This document shows, in pieces, positions 9,909-34,958 of a DNA stretch of 34,958 nucleotides. Every line of letters begins with the position of its first letter. The first letter of the stretch is position 1. The notes under the pieces were generated by a model that saw only the letters and a list, made by a program, of their open reading frames with translations, made no database searches and was not told the DNA's origin. The position numbers were made by a program, and so were the translations under genes. Source of the stretch: an uncultured Candidatus Saccharibacteria bacterium (GTDB taxonomy: Bacteria > Patescibacteriota > Saccharimonadia > Saccharimonadales > CAZYVW01); the NCBI GenBank assembly GCA_964651645.1, contig CAZYVW010000001.1, positions 1 to 34,958 on the forward strand. Reading direction: 5' to 3'.

Positions 9909-10763
9909 ATGACAGACAGCGAGATATTGATTGTTGGAGCCAATGGGCAGCTAGGCAAAGCGCTGCAAGCCAAATACCCGGGCGCCAGAGCTGTAGATAT
10001 TGATGAGCTGAACATCAGCGACGCAGCCAGTGTAGAAAACTATGACTGGAATGGGATAAAAGTAATCTTGAATGCCGCAGCATATACCAATGTTGATGGT
10101 GCCGAGTCAGCCGAGGGCCAACTTGCCGCCAAACAAGCCAACGCGGTTGCGCCTAAGAATTTAGCTGACGCCTGCGTTAAGCACGACGTGACAATTGTTC
10201 ATATTTCTACCGATTACGTTTTTGATGGCAGTAAAGTTCCCCACACCGAGGATGAGCCGTTCAGTCCTTTGAGCATTTATGGCTCAACAAAAGCTGACGG
10301 CGACAAGGCAATTGCTACAGCTCCAAAACACTACATCCTGCGTACGTCTTGGGTGATTGGCGACGGCAAAAACTTTGTCCGTACCATGTTAGAGCTAGGG
10401 CAAAAAGGCATTAACCCTACTGTGGTTGGTGACCAAATTGGCCGGCTGACTTTCACAAGCGTATTAGTAGAAGCCATTGATCATTTGCTTTCAAGCAATG
10501 CGGCCTATGGAACTTATAATGTCAGTAACGATGGTGAGCCCGCTTCTTGGGCAGATATTACGCGGGAGATTTTTAAGGATGCCGGATTGCCTAACACCGT
10601 TACAGACACGACAACCGCGGAATATTTTAAGGACAAGCCTGAGGCCGCACCAAGGCCATTACAAAGTAGCTTAGATTTAAGTAAAATTAAAGCGGCAGGT
10701 TTTGTGCCACGTGATTGGCGCGAGGATTTAAAGGATTACATCCAGAAGGAACTGAATTCATGA
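9909..10763 (+). CDS. rfbD: dTDP-4-dehydrorhamnose reductase
   Basis: [38 protein letters not shown] and YGSTKADGD match the RmlD pattern. The ATG directly follows the rfbC stop. Confidence 0.85.
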
Positions 10764-11626
10764 AAGGTATTATCTTAGCCGGCGGCGCCGGAACACGACT
10801 GTACCCGATTACTAAGGGTATTTCCAAACAGCTGATCCCAATTTACGACAAGCCAATGATTTACTACCCGCTGTCTACATTGATGTTGGCTGGCATTAAA
10901 GACATTCTGATCATCACCACTCCACATGAACAAGTTCAATTCCAAAACTTGCTCGGCGACGGCAAAGACTGGGGCATTAACTTGCAGTACGCCGTCCAGC
11001 CCAGCCCAGACGGACTGGCGCAGGCTTTTATTATTGGCGAGGAATTCATAGGCCAGGACAAAGTTGCCTTGATTTTAGGCGACAATATTTTCTATGGTCC
11101 GGGCTTTGGTAATAGCTTGCGTGAGTGTACTGACCCAGACGGTGGCATGGTCTTTGCCTACCGCGTAGCCGACCCAGCACGCTATGGCGTCGTGGAATTT
11201 GACGCCAACCAAAAGGCTATATCAATTGAAGAAAAGCCAGAGGTGCCAAAATCCAATTACGCAGTTGTTGGCCTATACTTCTACGACAATGATGTAGTTG
11301 AGATTGCCAAGAACATTAAACCGAGCGACCGTGGTGAGCTGGAAATCACTGCCGTTAACGACGAATATTTGAAACGAGGCAAGCTCAAGGCCCAGATTAT
11401 GGCGCGCGGTACGGCTTGGCTGGACACTGGTACTTTTGAATCTATGAATGATGCTTCGGAATACATCCGGGTGGTAGAAAAACGCACCGGCTTTAAGATT
11501 GGCTGCCCGGAAGAAATTGCTTTCCGCCAAGACTTTATTACAACTGAGCAGTTGACCAAGTTAGCCGAACCGCTGCAAAAAAGTGGCTATGGCCAGTACC
11601 TTCTGAACCTACTTCAAACAGAATGA
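10760..11626 (+). CDS. rfbA: glucose-1-phosphate thymidylyltransferase
   Basis: [39 protein letters not shown] is the canonical RmlA N-terminus. ATG 10760 overlaps the rfbD stop (ATGA). The longer track ORF from 10715 would overlap rfbD by 49 nt and adds non-homologous residues. Confidence 0.9.
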
Positions 11627-21055: not shown

Positions 21056-21478
21056 ATGGAAAAGCTTAAAAACTACGCGAACTATTTGTATAGACATAAC
21101 TTGGTGCGCTACCTTTTTGTCGGTGGGACTTCATTTGTTATTCTTTTTGGGGTGCAAGTATTCTTGCATGGAATCTTGGATGTTTGGCTACCGCTGGCAA
21201 CTTTTATAGCTTATTCAACATCAGTTATCTTCAATTTTACGGCTAATCGCCGATGGACTTTTAGTGCATCTGAAGCTAAAAGCCTAAAACAACATATTTT
21301 GCCTTATGCTGCTTTACTCAGTTTTAACTTGTTATTTAATGAGTTGTTTATCAATTTGGGGACACACTTCATCAACTATGCTGTTGCTACAGTACTGGCC
21401 GTTTTGATCCAGACAAGCTGGACGTATTTTATCTATAAAAACGTCATCTTCAATAAAAAAACGGAAGCCAAAGAATAA
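21056..21478 (+). CDS. GtrA family membrane protein
   Basis: 140 aa with four hydrophobic spans. GtrA motifs are present (LVRYLFVGGTSFVILFG, FNFTANRRWTF, WTYFIYKNVIF). Confidence 0.8.
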   Translation: MEKLKNYANYLYRHNLVRYLFVGGTSFVILFGVQVFLHGILDVWLPLATFIAYSTSVIFNFTANRRWTFSASEAKSLKQHILPYAALLSFNLLFNELFINLGTHFINYAVATVLAVLIQTSWTYFIYKNVIFNKKTEAKE

Positions 21479-21479
21479 A

Positions 21480-22907
21480 TCAAAGGGTTCGCGGCCCCGA
21501 GTGAACGTAGTAGCGCAGGACTATCACCACAACAGAGGATACTAGCATTAATGCCATACCAAGTGTCATCAATTTGCAGAGTTTCTGATACTCTGGCGTT
21601 TTGGCCTTGGATTTGAAGCCAAAAAAGGCCACCAGCAAAACTGAAATCGGAATAAAATAGCGCCCTTGGATGCCGTCAACTATTGATTTGCCTACTGGCG
21701 TGTAAGTTAGGTAGGCCAGAGTTGTGAAAGCCAGGATAGTAACAACGCCGACACTAGCAATCAACAGTTTTTGCCAATTTTTAAGCTTTACTAGATTTTT
21801 TTGTTCGTCGTCAGGCATCCAGCCCAAGGCAGTAGCAATCAGCCCAAAATTAAAAATCACAAACCATAGTGGCAAGAACGTCAGCCAACCCAGCATGCCA
21901 ACGTAGCCCATTATTCTGGCATCGCCCACGCCCGTGAAGTAGCTGTTGTAGATTGCCGCTAAGTAGCTTAAAGGTTTATGCAAAATAAACGACGCCTGCT
22001 GATGCGCATGTATCAGCTGGCCGTTTACCAGGTCATAAGTTACACGGTAGTTGGTGTATAGCCCTTTTGTAACATGCCCCCAAACAACAAACATTAATAA
22101 CATTCCTAGAGCTAAGCTTCCAGCAAACAAATAGTAGTTTTTAAGCGATTTAAACTTAGCCCTAGGTAACAACAGATACAGAAGAGCCAGTATAAAATAG
22201 GGGGATTTAGAAAGCATCAATCCTGCGGATGTGCCAAGAAGTATAAGATAGTCCCTCCTTGTAAGCAGATCTTTTGTCATGGCGTAGCGGAAAAATAGTG
22301 CTACAGCCAGAAACGATAGACCGTTAGTTAGGGCGTCTGCCGATAGCGACGCGCCAGTAAAAAGCGACATCGGCATCAATGCCAAGACGCAAAAGACCCA
22401 TTTGCCTTTTGGCGTAATTTTAATAGCCATGTAGGTTAGCAGTAGCCAGGCAATAAAAGTCAGAAGTCTGGCTGTGTACATCAGCACCAAGGGTGGTGCA
22501 TCAAACTGTCTTAATACTGCAATGCCAAACGCCGCCGGAATATATGGCACCGGCGGATAAAGCACAGTGTTAGGAAAATTAATCGGCGTTTTGTCTTGGC
22601 GCTCCAGCGGCCTGGTCAGTCCGGTTCTAACCAGATTAAAGTTTAGCTTGTGGGTTTTTTCTTGAGCAAGGTAATCAAAGGAGTTTTTTGTTTCCAATAG
22701 ACTTCTAGGCAATGTGCCGCCTGCCCCAAGCTGATTTTTGTGGCCAACAATCCCTAGCTCAGAAAGTTGATAGGCTCTATAAAAATGATTGTCTTCGTCT
22801 GAAACTTGATACGGTGGAGTCAGGAATAAAAAAATCAAACCAAAAAATAGAGCCAGGACAAGAAATACTTTTGCCGGATGCAAATAAAAATCAGATAGTT
22901 TAGTCAT
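21480..22907 (-). CDS. DUF2142-like polytopic membrane protein (candidate GT-C transferase)
   Basis: It has at least 11 hydrophobic spans. The first-loop motif PPYQVSDEDNHFYRAYQLSE resembles the conserved PDE..H..RA motif of DUF2142 proteins, which commonly sit in rhamnose/GT2 loci. I prefer ATG 22907 (MTKLSDFYL). The track starts at GTG 22919. Confidence 0.6.
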   Translation of the reverse strand: MTKLSDFYLHPAKVFLVLALFFGLIFLFLTPPYQVSDEDNHFYRAYQLSELGIVGHKNQLGAGGTLPRSLLETKNSFDYLAQEKTHKLNFNLVRTGLTRPLERQDKTPINFPNTVLYPPVPYIPAAFGIAVLRQFDAPPLVLMYTARLLTFIAWLLLTYMAIKITPKGKWVFCVLALMPMSLFTGASLSADALTNGLSFLAVALFFRYAMTKDLLTRRDYLILLGTSAGLMLSKSPYFILALLYLLLPRAKFKSLKNYYLFAGSLALGMLLMFVVWGHVTKGLYTNYRVTYDLVNGQLIHAHQQASFILHKPLSYLAAIYNSYFTGVGDARIMGYVGMLGWLTFLPLWFVIFNFGLIATALGWMPDDEQKNLVKLKNWQKLLIASVGVVTILAFTTLAYLTYTPVGKSIVDGIQGRYFIPISVLLVAFFGFKSKAKTPEYQKLCKLMTLGMALMLVSSVVVIVLRYYVHSGPRTL

Positions 22908-22971
22908 TAGCGTTACCACTAATACTACAGGTGTGCAGAAACCTTGCCAAGAAGCGTTTGGAGCCTAGAAG

Positions 22972-23709
22972 TTAGACCGTCTTAGAATCACGCGGATGAA
23001 AGGCATATAAGAACCAATGCAAGTACATTGGCAGCCATTTGCGAAGGTTGAACTTGGACTCGCCTGTCATGCGGTCTTGCCAAGTAGTAGGCAGTTCTAC
23101 AATTTTTAGACGCTTACGAAAAGCTTTAACGGTAATTTCTAGGGCAACTTCAAAGCCACCGGTACTTTCAATCTTGATTGAATCAAGCAGCTTTTTGTCG
23201 TAAAGACGGAAATTATTAGTAGCGTCATGGATTGGGAAACGGCGGAGATAGTACAGTGAATTCCCAGCCACGCGTGAAAGCGTGCGCTTGATTAGCGGCC
23301 CACCAATTTCTTTGCCGCCCTTCATGTAACGACTAGCGCAAACAACTGATGCTCCGTTTAAATACTCTTTGTACATGGCTCCAACCATCGTTAGGTCATC
23401 AGATAAATCAGCCATAATAACCAGTACTGGTCCGGGTTCTTTGATAGCCGCAAAGCCACTTTTTAAAGCGTTCATTGGCCCACGCCCAATGTTGTTTTTG
23501 TGCAGTCTTATAGTTTTGTCTTTAGCGGCGTATTTTTTGGCAACCGGCACTGTGGTGTCCTCGTCAAAGTCATAAACCACAATTAACTCGTGGGGAATTT
23601 TAATGTCTTTTTTAACGGCTTCGTACAGGCTTGGAAAGTTATCGCCTTCATTGTAAACCGGCGTTACGATATGTAGCTTGGGTTTGCTAGATCCACCCAA
23701 GGCGGACAT
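22972..23709 (-). CDS. glycosyltransferase family 2, polyprenol-monophosphate-sugar-synthase-like
   Basis: HIVTPVYNEGDN, LIVVYDFDEDTT, VIMADLSDD and TNNFRLY are present. I prefer ATG 23709 (MSALGGSSKPK), which overlaps the upstream stop by 1 nt. The track ORF extends to 23769, inside the upstream gene. Confidence 0.75.
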   Translation of the reverse strand: MSALGGSSKPKLHIVTPVYNEGDNFPSLYEAVKKDIKIPHELIVVYDFDEDTTVPVAKKYAAKDKTIRLHKNNIGRGPMNALKSGFAAIKEPGPVLVIMADLSDDLTMVGAMYKEYLNGASVVCASRYMKGGKEIGGPLIKRTLSRVAGNSLYYLRRFPIHDATNNFRLYDKKLLDSIKIESTGGFEVALEITVKAFRKRLKIVELPTTWQDRMTGESKFNLRKWLPMYLHWFLYAFHPRDSKTV

Positions 23710-24911
23710 TAAATTATGCCGCCCTTGCCGTAGAAGTTCCAAATGTCTACCAGTTCCTTGCCGCCCCAATTGTCTTCTGCATAAATGCTGTGCGGCGTAG
23801 CCAGCACAATTGTGTCGGCGCGTTGACGAATTTCGTCCAGCGAAACAAACCGTGGATCTTTAATGAATGGGTCGTGGCAGAGGACTTCTTTGGCCTCAAA
23901 TTCTAAGCGCTTCTTTAGCTTGTAGGAAAGGCTTTCGCGCGGGTCATCATTATCACCCTTAAAGGCCATGCCTAAGATTGCAACGGTGCGACGGGTAAGG
24001 TCATAGCGCTTGCTCATTTTCTCAACGATGTAGTCTGGCAGGCCTTCGTTGACTAGCATGGCCGAGTGTCCAAGGAAAAAGTTGTTCTCACTAAAAGCCG
24101 AAAGTTGCATGGTGTCCTTAAACAAACATGGGCCAGCGGCTAGGCCAGCTTTAGCAAAAGATTTAAGCCGCGGATAGTCTTCTGTCATGGCGTTATAGAT
24201 CTTGTAAAAGTCTAGGTCATGACTGTTGGCAATCATGAAGAACTGGTTGGAAATAGCAAAGTTAATATAGCGCCAGGTGTTGGTAAATAATTTTGCCAAC
24301 TCGGCTTCCATGGGTTTAGTAACGATTATTTTTTTAGCTAAGACTTTGAAGACTTCGCTGGCTGCCTTGGTAGCTTCTTCCGTGCAGCCTCCAACTTGCT
24401 GCGGCAATTCATAAAGTTCCTTAAGAGCGTGCCCCTCAGCAATCCGTTCCGGACAGAAGGCTACTAGCGTCTTTTTGCCCTCTTTTTGCAGGTATTCGTA
24501 AACCTTGTCAGTTACGCCAGGAAACAGCGTGCTGCGCATAATCAGTAACTGATCGTCGCGGAGCTGGTTTTTAATTTGGGCTACGGCTTCAATAATTCCG
24601 GAAATCTTAGGGTTAAGGTGTTCGTCTACCGGCGTACCAATAACCATTATTACAGTTTTGGCTTTATTAATTACGCTTTTATCAGCTGAGGCTTTTAGGG
24701 TCTTACTCTTAATAACTTTTTTTAATAGCTGGTCGGCGTCGTTTTCTTTAAAGGGCATCTCAGCCTTATTAACTTTATCAACGGCTTTTTTATTTAAATC
24801 ATAAAGTACCACCTGTTTCCCTTGGTCGGCAAAAGCCATACCTAGGGGCAAACCAACGTGTCCACAGCCACCAACTATGCAAATATCAATGCCTCTACTG
24901 ACTTCAGCCAT
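23709..24911 (-). CDS. nucleotide-sugar 6-dehydrogenase (UDP-glucose/GDP-mannose dehydrogenase family)
   Basis: It has the N-terminal NAD loop ICIVGGCGHVGLPLGMAF and the catalytic-Cys context AAGPCLFKDT. The C-terminal domain reads ILGMAFKGDNDDPRES. AGGAG lies 5 nt upstream of the ATG. Confidence 0.85.
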   Translation of the reverse strand: MAEVSRGIDICIVGGCGHVGLPLGMAFADQGKQVVLYDLNKKAVDKVNKAEMPFKENDADQLLKKVIKSKTLKASADKSVINKAKTVIMVIGTPVDEHLNPKISGIIEAVAQIKNQLRDDQLLIMRSTLFPGVTDKVYEYLQKEGKKTLVAFCPERIAEGHALKELYELPQQVGGCTEEATKAASEVFKVLAKKIIVTKPMEAELAKLFTNTWRYINFAISNQFFMIANSHDLDFYKIYNAMTEDYPRLKSFAKAGLAAGPCLFKDTMQLSAFSENNFFLGHSAMLVNEGLPDYIVEKMSKRYDLTRRTVAILGMAFKGDNDDPRESLSYKLKKRLEFEAKEVLCHDPFIKDPRFVSLDEIRQRADTIVLATPHSIYAEDNWGGKELVDIWNFYGKGGII

Positions 24912-24966: not shown

Positions 24967-25536
24967 TCACAATGACATCCCCTGCAGGAAATCAGCAGCC
25001 TTTTGCATAGCCAAGTGATGATTGTAAGCAGAGACTTCTGGTATTTCGTCTAGGCCAATCCAGCGGAAGTCGGCCGCTTCATTCTGGGGGGAAAGCGAGC
25101 CGCCATATATATTAATAAGGTAAGTTAGAGCGATTGCATGCTTGCTAGGATCATAGCCACCTTCGGCATGATCGCGGTGGGCATACTCTGCTACATGGAC
25201 AGGCCGATCCGCAGCATTGCCACCATGGAAGTTAAAAGTTTCTACTCTTAAGTCGTTAAATAGGTGGCGGTGTATTGCATCAGCAATACCTTCGTCTTTT
25301 TTTATTCGGCCGCCCAGCATGGCTGGCTTTCCGGCTTCTGGCCCGGTGGCTCTAGTTATAATGCCAAGTCTTGGTTGGCGCCTGGTGTAGTCAACTGGTA
25401 GAAAGTCCACACATATTAGCGGCAGGTTTCGGACTACAAGCTCATACGCCGGCTCAGTCAAAAGCCCGTCTTTGTCATTAATTCCTTTTTTAGCAATAGC
25501 GTTAGCTAACGCTTTGTCAGATTCAACTCCGCTCAT
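24967..25536 (-). CDS. Nudix-fold-like protein with a degenerate Nudix box
   Basis: Residues 76-98 (GRIKKDEGIADAIHRHLFNDLRV) fit the spacing Gx5Ex7R.U, but the REUxEE glutamates read RHLFND. The overall size (189 aa) is typical of single-domain Nudix-like proteins. The call is tentative. Confidence 0.4.
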   Translation of the reverse strand: MSGVESDKALANAIAKKGINDKDGLLTEPAYELVVRNLPLICVDFLPVDYTRRQPRLGIITRATGPEAGKPAMLGGRIKKDEGIADAIHRHLFNDLRVETFNFHGGNAADRPVHVAEYAHRDHAEGGYDPSKHAIALTYLINIYGGSLSPQNEAADFRWIGLDEIPEVSAYNHHLAMQKAADFLQGMSL

Positions 25537-25588: not shown

Positions 25589-26908
25589 TTAATATCCGCC
25601 CCAACGGATTTGTTTTAAGTACTCAAGCCGTGCCTTAACCACTGTTGAATTAGGGTAAGTCAATAACAGGCAGCTCTCCGGTGGCGCGGCTAAGTGGCTG
25701 CACTGCTTTATGTTTTCTAGCTCGCGTTTGTGGCCGGCTGCACTGTGGATTCCCCAGGCGGCGTTGCTAAATAGCAGCAGTGTTGTCCCGGCTATTGCTC
25801 CGGACCATAACAGGTTTCTAAACCCAGTGCTTAACGGTTTTAGGATATCTTGACCCACAAAGCCGAAAGCAACAATTAAACTTATTGGCAGCAACATGGA
25901 AATAGTTGTATAACGGCTGCTATAGGCTTGGCTCAGCCCCAGACCCATCCTGGAAATTGCTGTAATCACCGAACTGCCCAGAGCGTATGTCCCCAGCGCA
26001 GTAAAAGGCAGCAGCTTGTTGAATGTTTGTTTACGGCGTAAGAACAAAAAAGTGTTTAGGCCTATAAAAGTAATCAGCAAAAAAGCGCCCGTAACCAGCG
26101 CCCCGGTGCGCAAGAAAGTCAGCGGCCGACCTAGATATATAAGTACGTACTTTATAAAAATAACGGGCTCCTTAAAAATCAGGGTTTTAGAGACGTAAGT
26201 TGCTGTGGTGTAGTGCCAAAAGTATGCGGTCGTGGCCAGCCCGCCTATAGCAACTGCTGGCAAATATTTTGCCGGACTAAGCCGCCGATAAACCAAGGCT
26301 ATAACTACTAACGGCCAGAGCAAGGTGCCGTTACCCAGCGAGAACTGAGCCAGCAGACCACCGACTATTATTAGCCCAAGTTGCTTCTGCGTTGAGTCTT
26401 TGGGTCGGCTTAGCGCATAAGCTACAATTACTGCGCCAAAGACATTTAGGAACCATTCCAGCTGCCAGCCCCACAACCAATTCTCAACTTGCACCGGCGA
26501 AAACCAGATTAGACTTAGTAACGCTGGCAGAAAAATTGGCAGGGTTTGCTCTAGATCTTTAGCTGTATTTTTAAGTAGTTTTAATAGCAGCCAAAAAGAC
26601 GCACTAGCGGCTGCCAGGCTAATAAAGCATTCAACTATCACATTCCAATGTGTCAAAAACGCTGAAGCCAGCAATATAATGTTTGGGATTAATATACGGT
26701 GTTCATTGTGCTGCTGCCAAACGTCGTGCCAGATAAAATGCCCAGCACGCAAATGCTGGAACATTGGCACTAGTTCCCACTGGTCTAAGTTCGGTGTATT
26801 AACCGTTTTGAAGATAATTAGCAGCCCGGCAACAACAATTGGAGCAAAAATCAGAGTCTGTGCTAAACGTAACTGAGCTCTTTTATCCCACATCTGTTTT
26901 AAAAACAT
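25589..26908 (-). CDS. polytopic membrane protein, candidate GT-C-type transferase
   Basis: 439 aa with at least 10 hydrophobic spans. The first extracytoplasmic loop carries acidic/His residues (DQWELVPMFQHLRAGHFIWHDVWQQHNEHR). No named family recognised. Confidence 0.55.
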   Translation of the reverse strand: MFLKQMWDKRAQLRLAQTLIFAPIVVAGLLIIFKTVNTPNLDQWELVPMFQHLRAGHFIWHDVWQQHNEHRILIPNIILLASAFLTHWNVIVECFISLAAASASFWLLLKLLKNTAKDLEQTLPIFLPALLSLIWFSPVQVENWLWGWQLEWFLNVFGAVIVAYALSRPKDSTQKQLGLIIVGGLLAQFSLGNGTLLWPLVVIALVYRRLSPAKYLPAVAIGGLATTAYFWHYTTATYVSKTLIFKEPVIFIKYVLIYLGRPLTFLRTGALVTGAFLLITFIGLNTFLFLRRKQTFNKLLPFTALGTYALGSSVITAISRMGLGLSQAYSSRYTTISMLLPISLIVAFGFVGQDILKPLSTGFRNLLWSGAIAGTTLLLFSNAAWGIHSAAGHKRELENIKQCSHLAAPPESCLLLTYPNSTVVKARLEYLKQIRWGGY

Positions 26909-26944: not shown

Positions 26945-27238
26945 ATGGAAAATAAACTAGTTAGACGCGTTGTTATAATTAAGCTTCATGACGATGTTAG
27001 CGAGCAGACAAAGAAAGACATTCTGCAGAAGTTAATGGCTTTGGGAGAGAGCCCTGATGTTAGGAATTGGCTGGTTAAAGAATCGCTTGATACCCGTAAG
27101 GGTCAAATTATTATTGAAGAAGGAATATTTGAGTCAGAAGCAGCAATTGAACGCTTCCGTTTGAGCCCAGAACACCAAACAGTTGGCAAGTATATGAGCC
27201 AGTTAGCCGACTGGTGGACGGCCGTCTTTTATGAATGA
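26945..27238 (+). CDS. Dabb (stress-responsive alpha/beta-barrel) domain protein
   Basis: 97 aa. The pattern RRVVIIKLHDDVSEQTKKDILQKLMAL...E.IFESEAAIERFRLSPEHQ is typical of the Dabb/ferredoxin-like dimeric barrel family. Confidence 0.6.
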   Translation: MENKLVRRVVIIKLHDDVSEQTKKDILQKLMALGESPDVRNWLVKESLDTRKGQIIIEEGIFESEAAIERFRLSPEHQTVGKYMSQLADWWTAVFYE

Positions 27239-28074
27239 TAAGTTCCTTGGGCTGGTATTATAAGCAGATGAAATTAACTACAGCTTCCGGCAAACCACTT
27301 AATCCGATTGGCATTGGCACTTGGGGAATTGTTGGCACTTGGGAAAAGACAACCGAGCATGAAGCAGAAGGTATTGAGGGTTTACGCTACTCCGTACAAA
27401 AGGGCCAAAACCACATAGATTCTGGCCAAATTTACGGCGGCGGCTATACCGATGAGTTTATTGGCAAAGCTATCAAAGGTTTAGAGCGCAAAGACCTCTT
27501 CATTGGCGATAAAGTTTGGGAAACCAACGTAGCGACCGGCAAAGTCCAGGAAGCCGCGAGCGAAATGCTTAAGAAGCTTGGCACCGATTATATTGACCTG
27601 CTCTATATCCACAAACCGTGGGACGATTTTCCTTGGCGCGAGGCCATCCCACAAATTGATGAGTTGATTGATAGGGGCGTTGTCCGCCAGTTTGGAGTTA
27701 GTAATTTTAACTTAGAGCAGCTACAAGAAGCTATGAAGCTATCTAAACACCCGGTGGCTGCTAATCAGCTTTACTACAACCTGCTACATAAACAAGAGGT
27801 TGATGATGCCATGCAAGCCTTTTGCAAAGAGCACGACATTCAGATAATTGCCTACCGTCCATTGGAACAAGGCAAAGTTTTAGAAAACGAAACCGTTAAG
27901 CAGATCGCCGCGGCCCATTCTGCCACACCTTCGCAGGTAGCCCTGGCCTGGTTAGTCGCCAAAGGCACATTAACCGTACCAATGGCAATTGATGAGACCT
28001 TTATTGACCAAAACCTGCGCTCACTGGAGTTGCAACTCACGCCGGAAGATATGGCCAAGCTGGACACCTTATAA
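27235..28074 (+). CDS. aldo/keto reductase
   Basis: IGIGTWG, IDSGQIYGGG, YIDLLYIHKP, RQFGVSNF and AYRPLEQG are AKR signature blocks. ATG 27235 overlaps the upstream stop (ATGA). An alternative start is ATG 27268 (MKLTTASGK). Confidence 0.85.
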   Translation: MISSLGWYYKQMKLTTASGKPLNPIGIGTWGIVGTWEKTTEHEAEGIEGLRYSVQKGQNHIDSGQIYGGGYTDEFIGKAIKGLERKDLFIGDKVWETNVATGKVQEAASEMLKKLGTDYIDLLYIHKPWDDFPWREAIPQIDELIDRGVVRQFGVSNFNLEQLQEAMKLSKHPVAANQLYYNLLHKQEVDDAMQAFCKEHDIQIIAYRPLEQGKVLENETVKQIAAAHSATPSQVALAWLVAKGTLTVPMAIDETFIDQNLRSLELQLTPEDMAKLDTL

Positions 28075-28081
28075 ATCGCTT

Positions 28082-28110
28082 TTGTTTAATCAACCCCTGA
28101 TTGTTATAAT
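28082..28110 (+). promoter_or_regulatory. sigma70-like promoter for the C-methyltransferase gene
   Basis: The -35 is TTGTTT (28082-28087) and the spacer is 17 nt. The extended -10 is TGTTATAAT (TG at 28102-28103, TATAAT at 28105-28110). Only 9 nt separate the -10 from GTG 28120, and no SD is present. Confidence 0.5.
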
Positions 28111-28119
28111 CATCCCGTT

Positions 28120-29325
28120 GTGATCGTTAAAGAATGTTTTTTATGTAAAAGTAAGAAGCTTTATAAAGTTATTGATCTGGGCTTTCACCCACTGGCCGAT
28201 ACTTTCCTTAAGGCTCCTCAGCTGGATGGACCGGAAACCCGCTATCCATTATTTGTTGTGGCCTGCAAAGACTGCGGCCATTTAATGAACGGCTACATTG
28301 TGCCAGCTAAAGCCCGTTACCAGGAAAACGAATACAGCTACGATTCTTCTAACTCACAAGTTTCAATAAACCACTTTGACGAATTTGCCCAAGAGGCCAT
28401 CAAGCTCGTTGGCGTTACTAAAGACGATTTGGTAGTAGATGTTGGCTCCAATGTTGGCACTTTTTTATCTAAGTTCCGTGAACATTCTGGCTGCAGCGTA
28501 ATCGGTATTGAGCCTTCGCACAACATTGCCGTACTAGCTAGAAAAAACGGTGTTAAAACTTTTGAAGAATTTTTTAACTCCAAAGCCATTAAGCAAATTA
28601 AGGAAACCTCCAAGGCCAAGTTGATTACCGGGACTAATGTTTATAACCACATTGAAGACCAAGCGTCTTTTGCCAAGGATGCAATCGACTTACTAACTCC
28701 AGACGGCATGATTGCTATAGAAACGCCTTACGCCGGCAAGCTGATCGATGAAACCTCTTTTGACACGATTTATTTAGAGCACGCCTCTTATTTCTTTGTA
28801 ACGTCGCTTAAAAAATTCTGGGGCAAGTATGGCTTTAAAATTAGCCATGTGGAGCTTAATGATTACATGAGTGACTCGATGCGCTTTTACTTAAGCCGCC
28901 AGTTACCAGAAAGCCCGGCCGTAGCTAAAATGATTAGAGACGAGGCCAAAAAGGGCTACTTTAAACCAAAAACTTACGAAGCCTTCATGGAGCGCACTGT
29001 GAAATTCAAAATGGATCTTATGAAAGAGCTTTACCAAATTAAAGCCAAAGGTGGTGTAGTTATTGGCATTGGCGCAGCAACTAAAGGCAACACCCTACTT
29101 AACTACTGCGGCATTGACAGCACACTACTGGAATACGTGACTGACGCTTCGCCATTAAAAGTCGGCAAGTTTACCCCAGGCTCGCACCTGCCGATCAAAC
29201 ACGACAAAGACATTGATAACAAGGTTGTGACGCACGGTTTGATTCTGCCATGGAATATTGGCGATTTTCTTAGTAAAAAACTTGGCTTCTTAGGCATCAA
29301 GTTCTTGGTCCCACACCTAAAGTAG
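28120..29325 (+). CDS. NDP-hexose C-methyltransferase-like protein (TylCIII-type architecture)
   Basis: It has an N-terminal four-Cys zinc ribbon (CFLCKSKKL...CKDCGH) and a class I SAM motif (VVDVGSNVGTF). The C-terminal domain ends in G.FLVP, as in sugar C-methyltransferases. The start is GTG, the only in-frame start that retains the zinc ribbon. Confidence 0.7.
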   Translation: MIVKECFLCKSKKLYKVIDLGFHPLADTFLKAPQLDGPETRYPLFVVACKDCGHLMNGYIVPAKARYQENEYSYDSSNSQVSINHFDEFAQEAIKLVGVTKDDLVVDVGSNVGTFLSKFREHSGCSVIGIEPSHNIAVLARKNGVKTFEEFFNSKAIKQIKETSKAKLITGTNVYNHIEDQASFAKDAIDLLTPDGMIAIETPYAGKLIDETSFDTIYLEHASYFFVTSLKKFWGKYGFKISHVELNDYMSDSMRFYLSRQLPESPAVAKMIRDEAKKGYFKPKTYEAFMERTVKFKMDLMKELYQIKAKGGVVIGIGAATKGNTLLNYCGIDSTLLEYVTDASPLKVGKFTPGSHLPIKHDKDIDNKVVTHGLILPWNIGDFLSKKLGFLGIKFLVPHLK

Positions 29326-29329
29326 CGCC

Positions 29330-30322
29330 CTAGCTAGTGTAGCGGTCTTTGTACCAGTCGTAGGTTTTAGTTAAACCTTGTTCTAGGGTAGTGTTGGCTT
29401 CCCAGCCAACAGCGTTTTTGATTTTAGAAACATCAGCCAGGCGGCGCTTAACGGATCCTTCTGGTGATTTTTGAATATCAAGTTTCTTAGGATGCCACTT
29501 ACTAATTTTAAACAGTGTTTCGGCAAGGTCTTTAATAACCGTTTCCTCGGTGGTACCAATGTGGTAGATTTCACCATCGGTCTTATTGGAAATCATAACT
29601 AGGCGCATGGCTTCTACGGCGTCTTGGATATAGCAGAACGAGCGCGTATCATCGGCGCCGTAAATTGGGAAGGGATCAGTTTTCTTAACGATCCGCTCAA
29701 TAAACTGCGGAATAACGTGGTTAAAGCCGGCCCGCGGACCATAAAAGTTGTGCGGCCGGACAATGACATTACGCATTTTGTAGCTAGTACCGTAGTGAAT
29801 AAACAGTTGCTCGCCAATGGCTTTGGTAGCCGCATACGTCCAGCGCGGATTTTTAACATCGGAAATAACTAATGGTACATCTTCGGGTGTTGGAATTGGC
29901 AGCTGGTTAAAAGCTTCTAGGGCGCCGGCGTAAGCCTCGTTAGACGAAGTAAACAGGTTTTTGCCCTTGGGGTTCTTGGTTCTAGCCCATTCCAGGCCAT
30001 AAATTGAAGCCAGCAGGTTAATCCGTAAAACTTCATGGGGGATTTTATAAAACAGGTCGGTGCCGTTAACGGCCGCTAAATGATAAACGTAGTCAAAGTT
30101 GCCTTTAATTTTGTTCCAGCCTTCTGGGCTAGTTAGGTCAATTTCCATTAACTTAACGTTCTTGGCTTTTAGTAGTTCTTTTAGGTCTGGGTCGTCTTTG
30201 CCACGGAAGAAATTATCTATCATCAGGACTTCATCACCCTGCTCAACGTGAAGACGCGAAAGATACAGGCCAATAAAGCCAGCGCCGCCGGTAATTAAAA
30301 CTTTGTTAGATTTGCCAGCCAT
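29330..30322 (-). CDS. extended-SDR NAD-dependent sugar epimerase/dehydratase/reductase
   Basis: KVLITGGAGFIGLYL, YHLAAV and YAATKAIGEQL (YxxxK) are present, along with RPHNFYGPR. Substrate specificity cannot be read from the sequence alone. Confidence 0.85.
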   Translation of the reverse strand: MAGKSNKVLITGGAGFIGLYLSRLHVEQGDEVLMIDNFFRGKDDPDLKELLKAKNVKLMEIDLTSPEGWNKIKGNFDYVYHLAAVNGTDLFYKIPHEVLRINLLASIYGLEWARTKNPKGKNLFTSSNEAYAGALEAFNQLPIPTPEDVPLVISDVKNPRWTYAATKAIGEQLFIHYGTSYKMRNVIVRPHNFYGPRAGFNHVIPQFIERIVKKTDPFPIYGADDTRSFCYIQDAVEAMRLVMISNKTDGEIYHIGTTEETVIKDLAETLFKISKWHPKKLDIQKSPEGSVKRRLADVSKIKNAVGWEANTTLEQGLTKTYDWYKDRYTS

Positions 30323-30332
30323 GTATCCGCAG

Positions 30333-30338
30333 ATTATA
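30333..30338 (-). promoter_or_regulatory. -10 hexamer TATAAT, 10 nt upstream of ATG 30322
   Basis: The minus strand reads TTTATAAT-ctgcggatac-ATG. No SD is present. Confidence 0.4.
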
Positions 30339-30426
30339 AACGCCGCATATCTCTATAGCAAGCCAGGAATTAAATTTATGGTATTGTATACGTAAAATAA
30401 TATTGCCTAAAGGGAGTCGCCGCACA

Positions 30427-31131
30427 ATGTCAAAGAAACTAAAGCTAGATAAGGCTAAAGCTCTAGAAAACCTAAAAAAATACACAGACCAAATGGCCAC
30501 GCAAAACGGCGGCGAGGACAAAGACTACGCGGCACTGCAGTACAGCTGGAACAAAGACATCCTAGAGCGATCTATGGACTATATCCCCAAAGAAGCTCAC
30601 AAATTAATTGGCATTGGTAGTTTCCAGGGGGCATTAGAGCTAGCCTTGGCGCCGTTTTTTGACCAAGTTTTCTGCGTGGATCATGAATCATTCTTGCCAG
30701 CCAAAACTCCAAAGAATGTCACATTCCACCAAGCCGATATTGACAGCGCTCATTGGCGGCTGCCGGATGACCAAGCGATGTTTGACGTTGCCTACTGCAT
30801 AGAAACTATTGAACATCTGCTGTGGTCGCCACTACCACTATTAAAGTGGATGCAGAGCTACTCCCATATTTCCGTAATCTCCACGCCCGATGATGCCGAG
30901 TGGCCTGCCATGAACATTCGCCCGTGGACCCGTTTCCAGAAATTTATTGATATTCCTCGGGCCAAGCGCCGCTTTAAAGGCAACCCCGAGCCGATGTTTC
31001 ATACCAAACAGTACGGACAAGCCGAGTTCATAGAAATGTTGGATTTTGTTGGCTTTAGAGTCTTGGAATTTTTTAGAACTGGTGAGGGGCATCACCAAAT
31101 GGTAGCTATCGTCCAGCCAAGGCATAAATAA
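30427..31131 (+). CDS. class I SAM-dependent methyltransferase
   Basis: Motif I-like LIGIGSFQGALELAL...CVDH and post-I/II FDVAYCIETIEHL are present. I prefer ATG 30427, which has GGGAG (30412-30416) 10 nt upstream. The track starts at TTG 30403. Confidence 0.6.
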   Translation: MSKKLKLDKAKALENLKKYTDQMATQNGGEDKDYAALQYSWNKDILERSMDYIPKEAHKLIGIGSFQGALELALAPFFDQVFCVDHESFLPAKTPKNVTFHQADIDSAHWRLPDDQAMFDVAYCIETIEHLLWSPLPLLKWMQSYSHISVISTPDDAEWPAMNIRPWTRFQKFIDIPRAKRRFKGNPEPMFHTKQYGQAEFIEMLDFVGFRVLEFFRTGEGHHQMVAIVQPRHK

Positions 31132-32828
31132 TGTTATTGAGCATTTTGTATTTCTGCTTTATCCATATCTCGCTTCTGTTGCCAGGCTATGTATTACTTA
31201 AAAAAACTAGGCTGCTATATAGGAATCCTGGCATAGAGTTGTGTTTTGCTTATCTAATTTCGATTGTCTTTTTCGGGTTATTGGCAATTGGTAGTTACGT
31301 TTTAAAGCTAAGTCCAGAGGTTTCACAAATTATCTCTTGGGTGACTCTAACAGCCAGCGCCGTAATCTTTATTCAACAGCGTTATCTCCAAGAATTGCTG
31401 AAACAGCGCTTGCCGCTGGCTTGTTTTGTGATGATCTCTTTGTTTGCTTCTAGTTTTATCGGGCTAAGCTTTAGCGCGCCTTATAAATTTGTGCCAGATC
31501 CGCAAGTTCAGGCCGGACGTAACTACCAAGTACCTAACGTCAAAGTCCTAAATGTCGCCCAGACTCAAGCCAACGATAACTACGTGCCTTACCGCCAGGC
31601 CCAGTTTATGATTCATCGCGCTGACCCGGGCAAAGCTGATTTTATTTATGAATGGGGGGTGTTCTTTTTCCAGCGCACGCCGCTGATGGGCGCTGTAACG
31701 GCTAACTACTTGACGATGCTCGGCGATGTGCCGCCGCTAGACCATCCGTGGGCCGCCGACGGGGCCGACCCGGCACATACTTATATGAAGTTTCAAATTA
31801 TCGCCAATATTTTAAACACCATGTTTATTTTGCCGGCCTTCTTTTTACTGCGCAGATTGTTTAACAATAAAACAGCGGCCTTGACTTGCCTGTTTTTGGT
31901 TTCTAGCCAGTACTTCTTGTACAACGCCTTCTTTAGCTGGCCTAAGTCGCTGGTGGCCTTCTTTATCCTATTGTCTTGGCTGCTCCTGCTAGAAAATAAG
32001 TTCCGCTATACGATGCTAGCAGGCGTGGCAGCTGGTGTGGCCTACTTGGCACATGATTTAGCGATACTTTACATTGGCGCCAGCGCCCTTTACCTGCTTT
32101 ACAACAAACGCTTTAAAGAAACGGCGGTGTTTGCTGGTATTGCGGCGGTGTTTGCTCTGCCGTGGTTACTAACAGCCAGTTTGGTATATAACAAGCCTAG
32201 TACTTTTATTTATTACCCGTTTTCTACCGGTGGAATTCCCCAAAACGGCCCGCAGGTCATGCGCGACTTCGCGCACACCTCCCCGCTCAGGCTGTTAAAA
32301 ATCCGGGTTGATAACATGGTTTACTTGGGCAGCCCTTACGAGCTACTGACTTCTGAAGGCGGGCAAGAGCTTGGCCGGCGGCTGTGGGCCTTTGGGTTGT
32401 TCTCTATCCCAGGGTCAATTGGGATTGGCTTGATTATCCCAGCCGTATTAGGAGCCCTTAAAAAATTCCGTAACGCCGCTTTATGGGCAATGGTTGTCGC
32501 ACCGGTAATTTTAGAGACGTTGGTTATTGGTTGGCCAAAGGGCCTAGGTGCGCTGCATTTTGCCGAAGGCGTAGTTGTTGTCTTAAGCGGCTTAGCCATT
32601 TACTACCTGGCCCAGCTAAAAAACAAGGCTTGGCTATTTGCAGCCTTTGTAGCCAACTGCGCCCAGCTGGTCTTTTTTGCGACATACAGCTATGGGTTTA
32701 AGGTTAGCAGTTGGCTTAACGCTGGCGACCTAGCCAGGCTGTCAGTTATGACAGCAATTATTTTTAGCTCTGGCTGGCTAATCTACAAGATTGCGCTGGA
32801 TAGACCTTCTTGGCTAGCCGACAACTAG
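31131..32828 (+). CDS. polytopic membrane protein, candidate GT-C-type transferase
   Basis: 565 aa with at least 12 hydrophobic spans. A large early loop holds acidic and aromatic residues (ANDNYVPYRQAQFMIHRADPGKADFIYEW). The ATG overlaps the methyltransferase stop by 1 nt (TAATG). The family assignment is tentative. Confidence 0.5.
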   Translation: MLLSILYFCFIHISLLLPGYVLLKKTRLLYRNPGIELCFAYLISIVFFGLLAIGSYVLKLSPEVSQIISWVTLTASAVIFIQQRYLQELLKQRLPLACFVMISLFASSFIGLSFSAPYKFVPDPQVQAGRNYQVPNVKVLNVAQTQANDNYVPYRQAQFMIHRADPGKADFIYEWGVFFFQRTPLMGAVTANYLTMLGDVPPLDHPWAADGADPAHTYMKFQIIANILNTMFILPAFFLLRRLFNNKTAALTCLFLVSSQYFLYNAFFSWPKSLVAFFILLSWLLLLENKFRYTMLAGVAAGVAYLAHDLAILYIGASALYLLYNKRFKETAVFAGIAAVFALPWLLTASLVYNKPSTFIYYPFSTGGIPQNGPQVMRDFAHTSPLRLLKIRVDNMVYLGSPYELLTSEGGQELGRRLWAFGLFSIPGSIGIGLIIPAVLGALKKFRNAALWAMVVAPVILETLVIGWPKGLGALHFAEGVVVVLSGLAIYYLAQLKNKAWLFAAFVANCAQLVFFATYSYGFKVSSWLNAGDLARLSVMTAIIFSSGWLIYKIALDRPSWLADN

Positions 32829-32895: not shown

Positions 32896-33480
32896 ATGGC
32901 ATTTAAGTTCCCCAAGTTTCGACGTCTGTCTGCCAAAAGCCGATTGCTTTTGGGCCTGCTTGTTATCGTGGTTGTAGCTAGCCTCTGGTACTGGCATAGT
33001 CACATTAAGAAGATAGTAGCCACCATCCCCACCAGCACTGCGGCGACTAGTCCAAGCACATCGACCCCTACTACAACTCCTTCTACTACCACCAACAGCA
33101 CACCTTCGCCTAGCCCTGCAAGCCCAGCGCCAAGCACTAAATCGGTTAGCCCAACACCTGCTACTAATCCTAATGCGACTTTGGTTGAGCCATACGGAAC
33201 GTTTGTCAGCAACCATGGCCAGGATTCGTCGCACCCAGCTGACTCTGAAGTCTCATATTGCACAACCACGCCGGGAGCAACTTGTTACATTGCATTTACC
33301 CAAAGCAATATAACCAAAAAACTACCAGTTCAAACAACTGACAGTTCTGGCTCAACTACCTGGAGATGGGACGTTAAAGCAGCCGGTTTGACCTCGGGCA
33401 AGTGGACGGTAACAGCCTATGCCTCTTTGGGCAATCAAACTAAAAGTACCGTGGATCAAATTAGTCTGGTCGTCCAGTAA
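32896..33480 (+). CDS. membrane-anchored Pro/Thr/Ser-rich protein with a small beta-rich C-terminal domain
   Basis: It has an N-terminal basic stretch plus a TM span (LLLGLLVIVVVASLWYW). A roughly 60-aa low-complexity P/T/S linker follows (TSTAATSPSTSTPTTTPSTTTNSTPSPSPASPAPS). The last 90 aa have alternating beta-like character (TTWRWDVKAAGLTSGKWTVTAYA). Confidence 0.6.
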   Translation: MAFKFPKFRRLSAKSRLLLGLLVIVVVASLWYWHSHIKKIVATIPTSTAATSPSTSTPTTTPSTTTNSTPSPSPASPAPSTKSVSPTPATNPNATLVEPYGTFVSNHGQDSSHPADSEVSYCTTTPGATCYIAFTQSNITKKLPVQTTDSSGSTTWRWDVKAAGLTSGKWTVTAYASLGNQTKSTVDQISLVVQ

Positions 33481-34958
33481 TGAAAAAGTCTTTTCGCATT
33501 TTGGCAGTTATTTTTTTCTACCTAGTGATTATTGTTGGCGGGCTGTTTATCCAAAATAAGGCTACCCAAGCTGCCTTTAACCCTAATAACGTGATTGACG
33601 ATTACACCTATGAAAATATCAACACCATGAATGCCGGCCAGATTGACGCGTTCCTGAATTCATTCCCTTCAAGTTGTTTGAGCACCAATCATGGCTTTAC
33701 GACGCCAGACCCTACTGGCTGGTCAGCAGCTTCAGGAAACGTCAACCACGGCTATACCTTTGGTGGAAATGTTACTGCCGGGACTGCCATATACCATACT
33801 GCGCAAATCTATCACGTCAATCCACAAGTTATATTGGCTACGCTCCAGTATGAACAAGCTGTGGTAACCGGTTCAGCTGGCTGCCACCTCACTACCCCCG
33901 ACTCATCTAGTACTTACACTTGTGACCTTTGGCACAATGGCGGCTCACATACTTGCACCACAGCCTGCCCATTTGCTGGCGGCTGTGTCCCGATTGCTAT
34001 GAGCAACCAGTGCGACGCCGGCAACTGCGACGCCACGTATGAAGGCTTCAGCTTACAGCTCTTATCAGGAACCTGGTTGGAGCGTTTTGGGCAAGAACGG
34101 GCTTATGGCCTATTAACTGGTTATCCTGGCCATGATCCGGGGGATGAAAACATTACATATGGCGGACCAATGACTCAAGGCAATCGCCAGCGAGTAGCCG
34201 GTGGCTCCAACGATTATTATGACGGAACCTATGTAGTCAATGGGCAGACATTGACCATGACCAACGGCGCCACGGCGGCTCGTTATTATTACATTCCCAG
34301 CATTGGCGGTAACCAAAGTTTTGTGAATACCTTTGAAGGTTGGTTTGGATCGACTATCAACGGCTGTGTGCTTTGGTCACTGCCTTCACCCGGACCCAAA
34401 GGCGCGCATTCTAAGAAAGTCGGCGATTACAATGGTGATGGCGTCACTGACATTGCAGTTTATAGCCCGAGTATTGGTTGTTGGCACGTAAGGGCTAATG
34501 GCGATGCCAGCTACGGCAACAGCGGTGATATCCCAGTACCAGGCGATTATAGCGGTTACGGCATGACAGAAGTGGCCGTCTACCGGCCGAGTGACGGTAC
34601 TTGGCATATCCGCGGTGTCGGCGACTACACTTACGGCAATAGCGGTGATATCCCAGTGCCGGCTGATTACAATGGCGATGGCGTGACAGATGCGGCCGTC
34701 TATAGGCCGAGCGACGGTACTTGGCATATCCGCGGTGTTGGTGACTTTAGTCACGGCCAAAGCGGTGATATTCCAGTGCCTGGTGATTACAACGGCGACG
34801 GTCGGGCAGATGTTGCTGTTTACCGGCCAGTCGATGGCAGTTGGCGTATCCGCGGCGTCGGAGATTTCCCTTACGGCGCGTCCACGGATATTCCAGTGCC
34901 TGGTGATTACAACGGCGATGGCCGGACAGACGCGGCCGTATTCCGTCCCGGCAATGGC
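33480..34958 (+). CDS. secreted protein with a possibly cell-wall-hydrolase-like N-terminal domain and FG-GAP/VCBS-type repeats (3' end outside the window)
   Basis: This ORF is absent from the track because it is open-ended. ATG 33480 overlaps the previous stop (TAATG), and the frame stays open for 493 codons to the window edge. A signal or anchor sequence is present (MKKSFRILAVIFFYLVIIVGGLFI). The motif YHVNPQVILATLQYEQAVVTG recalls the NPQVLL..LQKEQ motif that I associate with some cell-wall hydrolases. The C-terminus consists of GDYNGDG.TD.AVYRPSDGTWHIRG repeats. Confidence 0.7.
   Translation, partial: MKKSFRILAVIFFYLVIIVGGLFIQNKATQAAFNPNNVIDDYTYENINTMNAGQIDAFLNSFPSSCLSTNHGFTTPDPTGWSAASGNVNHGYTFGGNVTAGTAIYHTAQIYHVNPQVILATLQYEQAVVTGSAGCHLTTPDSSSTYTCDLWHNGGSHTCTTACPFAGGCVPIAMSNQCDAGNCDATYEGFSLQLLSGTWLERFGQERAYGLLTGYPGHDPGDENITYGGPMTQGNRQRVAGGSNDYYDGTYVVNGQTLTMTNGATAARYYYIPSIGGNQSFVNTFEGWFGSTINGCVLWSLPSPGPKGAHSKKVGDYNGDGVTDIAVYSPSIGCWHVRANGDASYGNSGDIPVPGDYSGYGMTEVAVYRPSDGTWHIRGVGDYTYGNSGDIPVPADYNGDGVTDAAVYRPSDGTWHIRGVGDFSHGQSGDIPVPGDYNGDGRADVAVYRPVDGSWRIRGVGDFPYGASTDIPVPGDYNGDGRTDAAVFRPGNG
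34425..34958 (+). repeat. in-frame tandem repeat, period exactly 120 nt (40 aa), at least 4.4 copies, truncated by the window edge
   Basis: GATTA(C/T) unit starts fall at 34425, 34545, 34665, 34785 and 34905. Long identical nucleotide runs occur between units, for example ggtacttggcatatccgcggtgt and agcggtgatat(c/t)ccagtgcc. Confidence 0.9.

Follow-up and report, generated by a model that had tools for sequence, protein, structure and literature searches.

A TylCIII-type C-methyltransferase in a Saccharibacteria surface-glycan locus and its possible part in a route to a methyl-branched pentose

The 34,958-nt stretch of DNA analysed here in full (hereafter, the window) is contig C1 of the genome of an uncultured Candidatus Saccharibacteria bacterium (G000; 756 kb, 80 contigs, ~90% complete), and the closest named relatives of its genes are found in 'Candidatus Saccharibacteria' metagenome-assembled genomes. 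Within a surface-glycan locus, it encodes a C-methyltransferase (C-MT) predicted to act on a nucleoside diphosphate (NDP)-4-ketosugar, which, together with an aldo/keto reductase (AKR) and an extended short-chain dehydrogenase/reductase (SDR), may form a cassette leading from a hexuronate through an NDP-4-keto-pentose to a branched sugar on a lipid carrier, a reading that we put tentatively at a probability of about 45%. The product would probably be a methyl-branched pentose derived from a sugar acid, and not the deoxyhexose expected from the first-pass annotation of the window, which had described a C-methyl-branched, further methylated deoxysugar lying next to its putative transferase. All six open reading frames (ORFs) of that annotation were found at exactly the same coordinates, with concordant Pfam assignments, and their setting in a surface-glycan locus with glycosyltransferases is supported. 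The identity of every substrate and of the acceptor is our inference, as are the carbon to be methylated, reduction by the AKR and the use of a lipid carrier.

The genes on which this reading turns are the following:
23709-24911, reverse strand: NDP-sugar 6-dehydrogenase (NDPDH) of the UGDH/WecC family, the proposed hexuronate source (TIGR03026, 286 bits)
27235-28074, forward strand: AKR, likely an NADPH-dependent ketoreductase (PF00248, 192.8 bits)
28120-29325, forward strand: C-MT, 401 amino acids (aa), GTG start (PF08421, PF13489, PF08484)
29330-30322, reverse strand: extended SDR, probably an ArnA/UXS-like NDP-hexuronate decarboxylase (residues, tree and gene partners)
8353-11626, forward strand: rfbB-rfbC-rfbD-rfbA, deoxythymidine diphosphate (dTDP)-L-rhamnose operon, which might instead supply a 4-keto sugar or the dTDP-glucose precursor

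The TylCIII architecture first proposed for the C-MT holds, with the three domains, the zinc site and the catalytic residues all present. Pfam profiles for Methyltransf_13 (zinc ribbon; 56.7 bits), Methyltransf_23 (60.4 bits) and Methyltransf_14 (125.5 bits) exceed their gathering scores and cover residues 6-388 in the order zinc ribbon, class I S-adenosylmethionine (SAM) domain and C-terminal domain. The best solved relatives are the D-mycarose 3-C-methyltransferase MtmC (E 1.6e-68), KijD1 (2e-54) and TcaB9 (2e-53), each ~32% identical over the full length. Cysteines C6, C9, C49 and C52 align with the zinc cysteines of MtmC and are (nearly) invariant in 20 homologues, and Y72/Y74, H177 and Y218-L-E220-H221, which are invariant in the homologue alignment, align with the YPYH, CHIP and YDEH motifs of TcaB9, whose active-site residues we take to be Tyr76, His181, Tyr222, Glu224 and His225 (Bruender & Holden 2012). 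A profile search, which could have placed the 401-aa protein in a non-sugar methyltransferase clade, placed it in the sugar C-methyltransferase family instead; because these family matches come with conserved zinc and active-site residues, a non-sugar assignment is ruled out at the level of sequence. Judged in this way, the protein is a full-length NDP-4-ketosugar C-methyltransferase of the TylCIII/TcaB9/MtmC family with intact catalytic residues. In the C-MT tree it belongs to a large clade of Patescibacteria, Proteobacteria and two Thermomonosporaceae sequences, well apart from the three solved enzymes; its nearest neighbours are four other Saccharibacteria (73-77% identity), followed by the two Thermomonosporaceae (58-59%; SH-aLRT support 98).

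The SDR is convergent with the C-MT, only 4 nt separating the two stop codons, and carries the GGAGFIG (GxxGxxG) and YxxxK motifs of extended SDRs. Its residues S127-N128-E129, Y163, K167 and R294 align with T432-S433-E434, Y463, K467 and R619 of ArnA, and neither E129 nor R294 varies among 26 members of the family. At the column of ArnA R619, the family has Arg where RfbB has Tyr and Gmd has Leu, and an Arg at this position is the marker that picks out CalS9, AviE2 and EvdS6 as glucuronate decarboxylases (PMC10338323). The acidic Asp of RmlB is replaced by Asn in the SDR, which lacks the Thr-Asp-Glu motif of that enzyme. Moreover, in the SDR tree the family groups with UXS plus ArnA and with RfbB plus Gmd (SH-aLRT 88), apart from Fcl, from a second SDR found in related loci and from an epimerase-like SDR. 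Based on the ArnA-like residues, the tree and the near-obligate dehydrogenase partner described below, the best reading is that the SDR is probably an NDP-hexuronate decarboxylase releasing a 4-keto-pentose, with a GMD-like dehydratase as the main alternative and a plain 4-ketoreductase as the least likely role. The reductase role after methylation that the first-pass annotation implied for this protein is unlikely, since the SDR is tied to a gene of the UDP-glucose dehydrogenase (UGDH) family, keeps the Glu and the R619-equivalent Arg, and groups away from the reductases.

Gene partners were compared in a census of 60 loci from species-representative genomes plus metagenomic contigs, in which neighbouring ORFs were clustered and which comprised 63 loci in total (62 fetched and the window). 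An SDR orthologue (52-80% identity) accompanies the C-MT in 27 of the 63, window included (type A), lying upstream of it in an order often continued by a second SDR or a classical short-chain reductase, the C-MT and a cupin. A UGDH-family gene is present in 22 of these 27 loci, usually directly upstream of the SDR, and four of the five loci without it have the SDR at a contig end. In some loci this partner is full-length, as it is in the window; in others it is a mini form of ~264 aa (262-317) that retains the Rossmann motif and GFGGxCLPKD and is without the C-terminal nucleotide-sugar-binding domain; the mini form is almost always directly upstream of the SDR (L015:7105-8058, L014:830-1621, L019:7511-8299 and 11 more loci). 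About 24 loci of Patescibacteria and Proteobacteria (type B) run instead from a GMD through a 130-aa protein without Pfam match, the C-MT and a cupin of ~139 aa to a small SDR or a DegT aminotransferase. The GMD of type B is a true GDP-mannose 4,6-dehydratase (PF16363, 407 bits; e.g., L022:8631-11600 and ~23 similar loci) and fills the slot just upstream of the C-MT, so that the slot of the SDR would be that of the maker of the 4-keto sugar.

A cupin of 124-139 aa immediately follows the C-MT in 43 of the 62 loci, in GMD and SDR contexts alike (L015:11209-11607, L013:2929-3303), and may be an epimerase or a ketoisomerase. Neither a cupin nor a second SDR nor a GMD was found anywhere in the window genome, and the cupin and the second SDR are missing from all five loci of the window clade, by which we mean the five closest loci (the window, L008, L009, L010 and L071).

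The NDPDH scores well above the TIGR03026 cut-off (189.8 bits) and has the catalytic-Cys motif AAGPCLFKD. Its closest relatives in the PDB are dehydrogenases of the UDP-N-acetylmannosamine/N-acetylglucosamine (ManNAc/GlcNAc) type, and therefore an N-acetylated substrate is also possible; CalS8 is also among these relatives, and CalS8/CalS9-type enzymes act on glucose nucleotides (PMC10338323). The window genome encodes RfbA, a GalU-like uridylyltransferase and a short NTP-transferase fragment, and since neither a mannose-1-phosphate guanylyltransferase nor a GMD was found in it, UDP- and dTDP-glucose would be the available hexose nucleotides. No other SDR partner for the NDPDH was found in this genome, and the NDPDH, a small GT2 glycosyltransferase and the SDR form one operon in L008 and L010, as do the NDPDH, GT2 and AKR in L071. 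In this context, the entry through dTDP-4-keto-6-deoxyglucose proposed in the first-pass annotation stands in that RfbA and RfbB are genuine and lie in the window; however, as the SDR would be a 4-keto-generating enzyme tied to a UGDH-family dehydrogenase, an NDP-4-keto-pentose is the likelier entry substrate.

In four of the five window-clade loci (the window, L008, L009 and L010), the AKR gene immediately precedes that of the C-MT, and in the fifth (L071) it comes after NDPDH-GT2. The AKR has the motifs IDSGQIYG, GDKVW and YIHKPW typical of the Asp/Tyr, Lys and His tetrad, and its closest solved relatives are 2,5-diketogluconate-reductase-like AKRs (E 2e-55); its homologues have 268-270 aa, which makes the ATG at 27268 a candidate for the real start. 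AKR12 enzymes reduce NDP-ketosugars in mycarose-type pathways (PMC10923870). The AKR is thus a conserved neighbour of the C-MT and likely its 4-ketoreductase, the likeness to AKR12 NDP-hexose reductases (TylCII, EryBII and AveBVII) being one of role only. Of the flank of Dabb-domain protein plus AKR described earlier, only the latter proved a conserved partner, whereas a Dabb protein is present in two of the five closest loci, its homologue (33% identity) occurring only in L008, where it adjoins the SDR.

On this evidence, the NDPDH would oxidise UDP- or dTDP-glucose, or an N-acetylhexosamine nucleotide, to the hexuronate, and the SDR, like ArnA, CalS9 or EvdS6, would oxidise C-4, decarboxylate and release the NDP-4-keto-pentose. 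The C-MT would then methylate the carbon beside the ketone, which would be C-3 if it works as TcaB9 and TylC3 do, and the AKR would reduce the 4-ketone with NADPH. The GT2 (22972-23769) would load the sugar onto polyprenyl phosphate, with GtrA helping its flipping, and a GT-C enzyme (the DUF2142 protein and/or the 565-aa protein listed below) would attach it to a polymer of the wall or to a surface protein rich in Ser/Thr. Release of 4-keto-pentoses has precedent in ArnA, CalS9, AtmS9, RsU4kpxs and EvdS6, and so has a branched sugar derived from a pentose (PMC10338323).

Several observations weigh against the decarboxylase route. The SDR could not be named from curated models, every NCBIfam match lying far under its cut-off (NF008872, 95 vs. 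294 bits; TIGR01181, 145 vs. 365 bits), and when the PDB was searched, whether by the sequence itself or by a profile of 26 sequences, an unnamed SDR (8vr2), archaeal/bacterial dTDP-glucose dehydratases and human UXS came within ~10-20 bits of one another (a literature search on 8VR2 gave nothing relevant). The position of ArnA S433 is Asn in the window SDR and Ser in one family member, and the Arg marker is not exclusive, as the second SDR, which is unrelated and a presumed reductase, also has Arg in that column. Furthermore, a small SDR tree gave an unresolved polytomy of the SDR family, UXS plus ArnA, RfbB plus Gmd and 8vr2, without clear nesting, and separated only the dehydratase/decarboxylase side from the reductase/epimerase side. 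In the window, NDPDH, GT2 and DUF2142 form one unit and the SDR stands alone, in a different transcription unit 4.4 kb away; in the actinomycete sister loci, GT2 and GT-C genes are present and UGDH and the orthologous SDR are absent. In addition, members of one and the same C-MT clade in the tree are found with a GMD in some loci and with the SDR in others, which shows flexibility without identifying the sugar. To these must be added the complete and bona fide RfbA/RfbB pair of the window (RfbB 8353-9357, 426 vs. an equivalog cut-off of 365 bits; RfbA 10760-11626, 485 vs. 361 bits; NCBIfam), the contiguous order rfbA, GtrA, AKR and C-MT in L010, and the fact that all characterised relatives (TylC3, TcaB9, KijD1 and MtmC) use dTDP-4-keto-6-deoxyhexoses (PMC3539893).

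These last points, together with the rfb genes near the cassette in L008 and L009 and the work of AKR12 enzymes in mycarose pathways, favour the strongest competing explanation, which we nevertheless consider unlikely: RfbA and RfbB would make dTDP-4-keto-6-deoxyglucose, the C-MT would methylate its C-3, and the SDR and/or AKR would reduce (possibly epimerise) it to a 6-deoxy-3-C-methylhexose of the virenose, evalose or mycarose type, used by a glycosyltransferase of the locus. The rfb operon, however, is complete for dTDP-L-rhamnose and general in Saccharibacteria, so that its proximity is not specific; RfbA and RfbB lie ~16.5 kb from the C-MT with unrelated modules between, and beyond the window clade only a few of the 62 loci have rfbA/B homologues near the C-MT. 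Such a route would also leave the tight and widespread coupling of SDR and UGDH-family genes unexplained, and it has to accommodate an SDR with a Glu of dehydratase/decarboxylase type that groups away from reductases. A mycarose-type pathway with 2-deoxygenation was rejected, since the annotated ORFs of the window include no 2,3-dehydratase and neither a cupin epimerase nor a GMD nor a second SDR was found in the genome.

It is rather improbable, by our estimate, that the SDR is instead an unusual 4,6-dehydratase with a GMD-like T/S-x-E motif, supplying the C-MT with a 4-keto-6-deoxyhexose made from UDP-glucose, UDP-GlcNAc or another NDP-hexose, while the dehydrogenase serves another sugar of the same glycan. 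The best NCBIfam match of the SDR and several of its top PDB matches are 4,6-dehydratases, GMD works with Thr-Ser-Glu and without the Asp of RmlB, the C-MT clade alternates with true GMD contexts, and the GalU-like gene shows that UDP-glucose can be made. Yet the score of the SDR against the dehydratase model is far under the cut-off (145 vs. 365 bits), the Arg at the R619 position is invariant in the SDR and absent from RfbB and Gmd, and the near-obligate UGDH partner would be a coincidence. By far the least probable is a C-MT homologue that does not C-methylate a sugar at all, being only a ketoreductase, acting on a non-sugar or lipid-linked substrate, or lacking function. MtmC is bifunctional, a methyltransferase and 4-ketoreductase (as cited in PMC3539893), and the recurrent pairing with a small GT2 and GT-C, actinomycetes included, could hint at a lipid-linked substrate; against this stand the full-length, intact reading frame with all zinc, SAM and catalytic residues and the strong conservation of the C-MT homologues (68-81% identity). 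We know of no member of the TylCIII-type architecture that acts on non-nucleotide substrates.

The route by which the sugar would leave the cytoplasm, and the remaining neighbours of the cassette, involve the following genes:
21056-21478, forward strand: GtrA-family small membrane protein, candidate flippase for a lipid-linked sugar (PF04138, 56 bits)
21480-22919, reverse strand: DUF2142 polytopic membrane protein, candidate lipid-sugar-using transferase (PF09913, 207 bits)
22972-23769, reverse strand: small GT2, DPM1/GtrB/ArnC-like polyprenyl-phosphate glycosyltransferase (PF00535, 61 bits)
24967-25536, reverse strand: DUF4916 Nudix-like protein, upstream in the NDPDH operon (PF16262, 61 bits)
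26945-27238, forward strand: Dabb (dimeric alpha/beta-barrel) protein, variable accessory (PF07876, 38.7 bits)
30403/30427-31131, forward strand: second methyltransferase (MT2), class I SAM methyltransferase by fold (Pfam 21.8 bits, under the cut-off of 27)
31131-32828, forward strand: 565-aa polytopic GT-C-type (PMT_2-like) glycosyltransferase (PF13231, 27.8 bits vs. a cut-off of 26.1)

The GT2 gene overlaps the NDPDH stop, and its product best matches the Pyrococcus Dol-P-Man synthase in the PDB (E 5e-17), then GtrB, with 21% identity to E. coli ArnC (E 9e-8). GtrA homologues adjoin AKR-C-MT in L010 and the SDR in L009, and a DUF2142 gene also lies downstream of the SDR in L071. The GT2 polyprenyl-phosphate-sugar synthase, GtrA and GT-C, the parts of three-component glycosylation systems, are encoded together in the window, and GT2, GtrA, DUF2142 and the PMT_2-like GT-C make up an Arn-like set which suggests delivery on polyprenyl phosphate. 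A promoter/terminator scan found promoter-like sites no commoner than in shuffled sequence, and no operon claim is based on it. The DUF4916 Nudix-like protein recurs, being in the NDPDH operon of the window and between AKR and C-MT in L071 (9290-9943). Two more large polytopic proteins of the window had no Pfam match (25589-26908, 439 aa; 16181-18010, 609 aa); the 439-aa protein is distantly similar (24%) to the membrane protein that follows GT2 in L079 and may be another lipid-sugar-using transferase.

The coupling of MT2 to the 565-aa protein by a TAATG stop/start overlap was confirmed at 31129-31133. The AlphaFold model of MT2 (pLDDT 91.3) retrieved class I methyltransferases with Foldseek, the EvdMO1 sugar O-methyltransferase domain at rank 2; MT2 had no sequence match in the PDB, and the fold indicates a class I methyltransferase only. 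Likewise, no PDB sequence match was found for the 565-aa GT-C, whose model (pLDDT 71) had GT-C proteins (ALG9, STT3/PglB, ArnT and Pmt4) as all of its top 24 Foldseek matches, at TM-scores of only 0.3-0.39. MT2 has 62 homologues (43-71% identity), with orthologues in Saccharibacteria loci that lack the C-MT (L077-L079), and orthologues of the GT-C (50-59% identity) are found in loci with and without the C-MT (50-56% in L077-L079, which have none). Because of these occurrences without the C-MT, a dedication of MT2 and GT-C to the C-methyl sugar was rejected, and the earlier wording of a 'further methylated' sugar beside 'its transferase' lost its specific basis; the 565-aa GT-C is a general component of the surface-glycan loci of Saccharibacteria and possibly a user of the branched sugar. 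The AKR-C-MT-SDR set, with or without Dabb, is a lineage-specific replacement or insertion in a locus backbone common to Saccharibacteria (dehydrogenase, SDR, GT2, GT-C and MT2).

In several Saccharibacteria, a protein of ~185-195 aa (Pro/Thr/Ser-rich in the window) and an FG-GAP-repeat protein of ~560-580 aa adjoin the GT-C orthologue (window 32896-34958; L077:6591-8869; L078:4097-6317; L009:1180-3485), often near a GT4 protein of 830-860 aa, and both may be acceptors of GT-C glycosylation. L077-L079 also hold the Pro/Thr-rich and FG-GAP proteins that come after the GT-C. In these Saccharibacteria without C-MT, the NDPDH orthologue (71-72% identity in L077 and L078, 38% in L079) is paired with the epimerase-like SDR, which has the motif SSSMVF, no catalytic Glu and 28% identity to the window SDR (L079:11797-14101; L077:16648-18711; L078:1-2174) and is followed in L079 by GT2 and a polytopic protein; this epimerase-like SDR is absent from the window genome.

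As regards distribution, TylCIII-type genes were detected in 40 of 401 sampled Patescibacteria genomes (E <= 1e-30) and in three of 301 genomes sampled from the order of the window (E <= 1e-50), the other two being only 30-33% identical; of the same 301, none but the window genome has the SDR orthologue. The unusualness earlier ascribed to such a sugar in this kind of organism therefore has to be qualified, the gene being rare in the order but carried by ~10% of the sampled genomes of the phylum. Literature searches returned no description of C-methyl sugar pathways in Patescibacteria. A relative of the same order has a decayed C-MT-like gene, 30% identical, with three in-frame TAA codons (G032:C2:173456-174330; L002, L006). 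Thermomonospora and Spirillospora carry the sister C-MT with 58-59% identity (L011:10001-11960; L012/L070:10001-12049), and near it they have a small GT2 52-54% identical to that of the window, GT-C genes of the PMT_2 and GT87 kinds and an ABC transporter. Acquisition by horizontal transfer is suggested by the patchy occurrence, by the sister group being actinomycete and by a GT2 that looks co-transferred.

Compared with TylC3, EryBIII, TcaB9, KijD1 and MtmC, the dTDP-4-ketosugar 3-C-methyltransferases of actinomycete antibiotic pathways, the window C-MT shares architecture, zinc site, SAM motif and catalytic residues, but it belongs to a separate deep clade and to a cell-surface glycan locus instead of an antibiotic cluster, and it is accompanied by a dehydrogenase of the UGDH family, a UXS/ArnA-like SDR and an AKR, with no 2,3-dehydratase or aminotransferase in the window. 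A surface glycan is likewise served by a TylCIII-type enzyme in the pathway proposed for virenose of Coxiella burnetii lipopolysaccharide, where GMD or RmlB, the TylCIII-like CBU_0691 and a reductase would act (PMC3539893). The GDP branch of that pathway is matched by the GMD, C-MT and cupin loci of other Patescibacteria and Proteobacteria, whereas the window genome lacks GMD and cupin and has its C-MT coupled to the dehydrogenase/SDR pair and a polyprenyl-phosphate GT2.

The same logic of dehydrogenase, decarboxylating SDR, 4-keto-pentose and tailoring of the ketone is seen in the Arn pathway (Ugd, ArnA, ArnB, ArnC, ArnE/F and ArnT) and in CalS8/CalS9, AtmS8/S9 and EvdS6. Like the window, the Arn pathway further has a GT2 that charges polyprenyl phosphate with the sugar, a small flippase and a GT-C, and the catalytic residues of ArnA, R619 included, are matched by the SDR. 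The tailoring in the window, however, would consist of C-methylation and reduction where the Arn pathway has transamination. The SDR forms a deep family of its own, scoring ~95 bits with the U4kpxs model (cut-off 294), there is neither a formyltransferase nor a deformylase, and a monoderm-like Saccharibacterium has no lipid A as acceptor. Gram-positive three-component extracytoplasmic glycosylation and actinobacterial Ppm1/Pmt O-mannosylation also resemble the window in the small GT2, the GtrA-type protein and the GT-C/PMT_2-like transferases, and the gene directly behind the GT-C encodes a secreted protein rich in Pro, Thr and Ser; in contrast to these systems, the donor would be a tailored branched sugar and not glucose, GlcNAc or mannose. 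The C-MT is a new member of a known family, and the pathway logic would be a new variant.

Extended to other organisms, the proposal becomes more doubtful, although we regard it as worth stating: Patescibacteria, some Proteobacteria and Bacteroidota may make an undescribed C-methyl-branched pentose with a UGDH-family enzyme (often the mini form), an ArnA/UXS-like decarboxylase, a TylCIII-type C-MT and a ketoreductase, and in this Saccharibacterium the pathway may have been grafted onto Arn-like polyprenyl-phosphate export, possibly exchanged with actinomycete hosts, and serve to decorate the surface of an episymbiont. The sister relationship of C-MT and GT2 to those of Thermomonosporaceae hints at an exchange of glycan genes between episymbionts and actinomycetes. 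Patescibacteria surfaces mediate host-bacterium attachment and phage exposure, and to our knowledge nothing is known of the surface-glycan chemistry of Saccharibacteria and other Patescibacteria; the locus yields a concrete and cheaply testable prediction. If the logic of dehydrogenase, decarboxylase and C-MT is true, it would open a new way into branched-chain sugars that starts from a pentose and not from a 6-deoxyhexose. It would also explain what a widespread but unnamed SDR family and the truncated UGDH-like proteins do, and supply new enzymes for glycodiversification.

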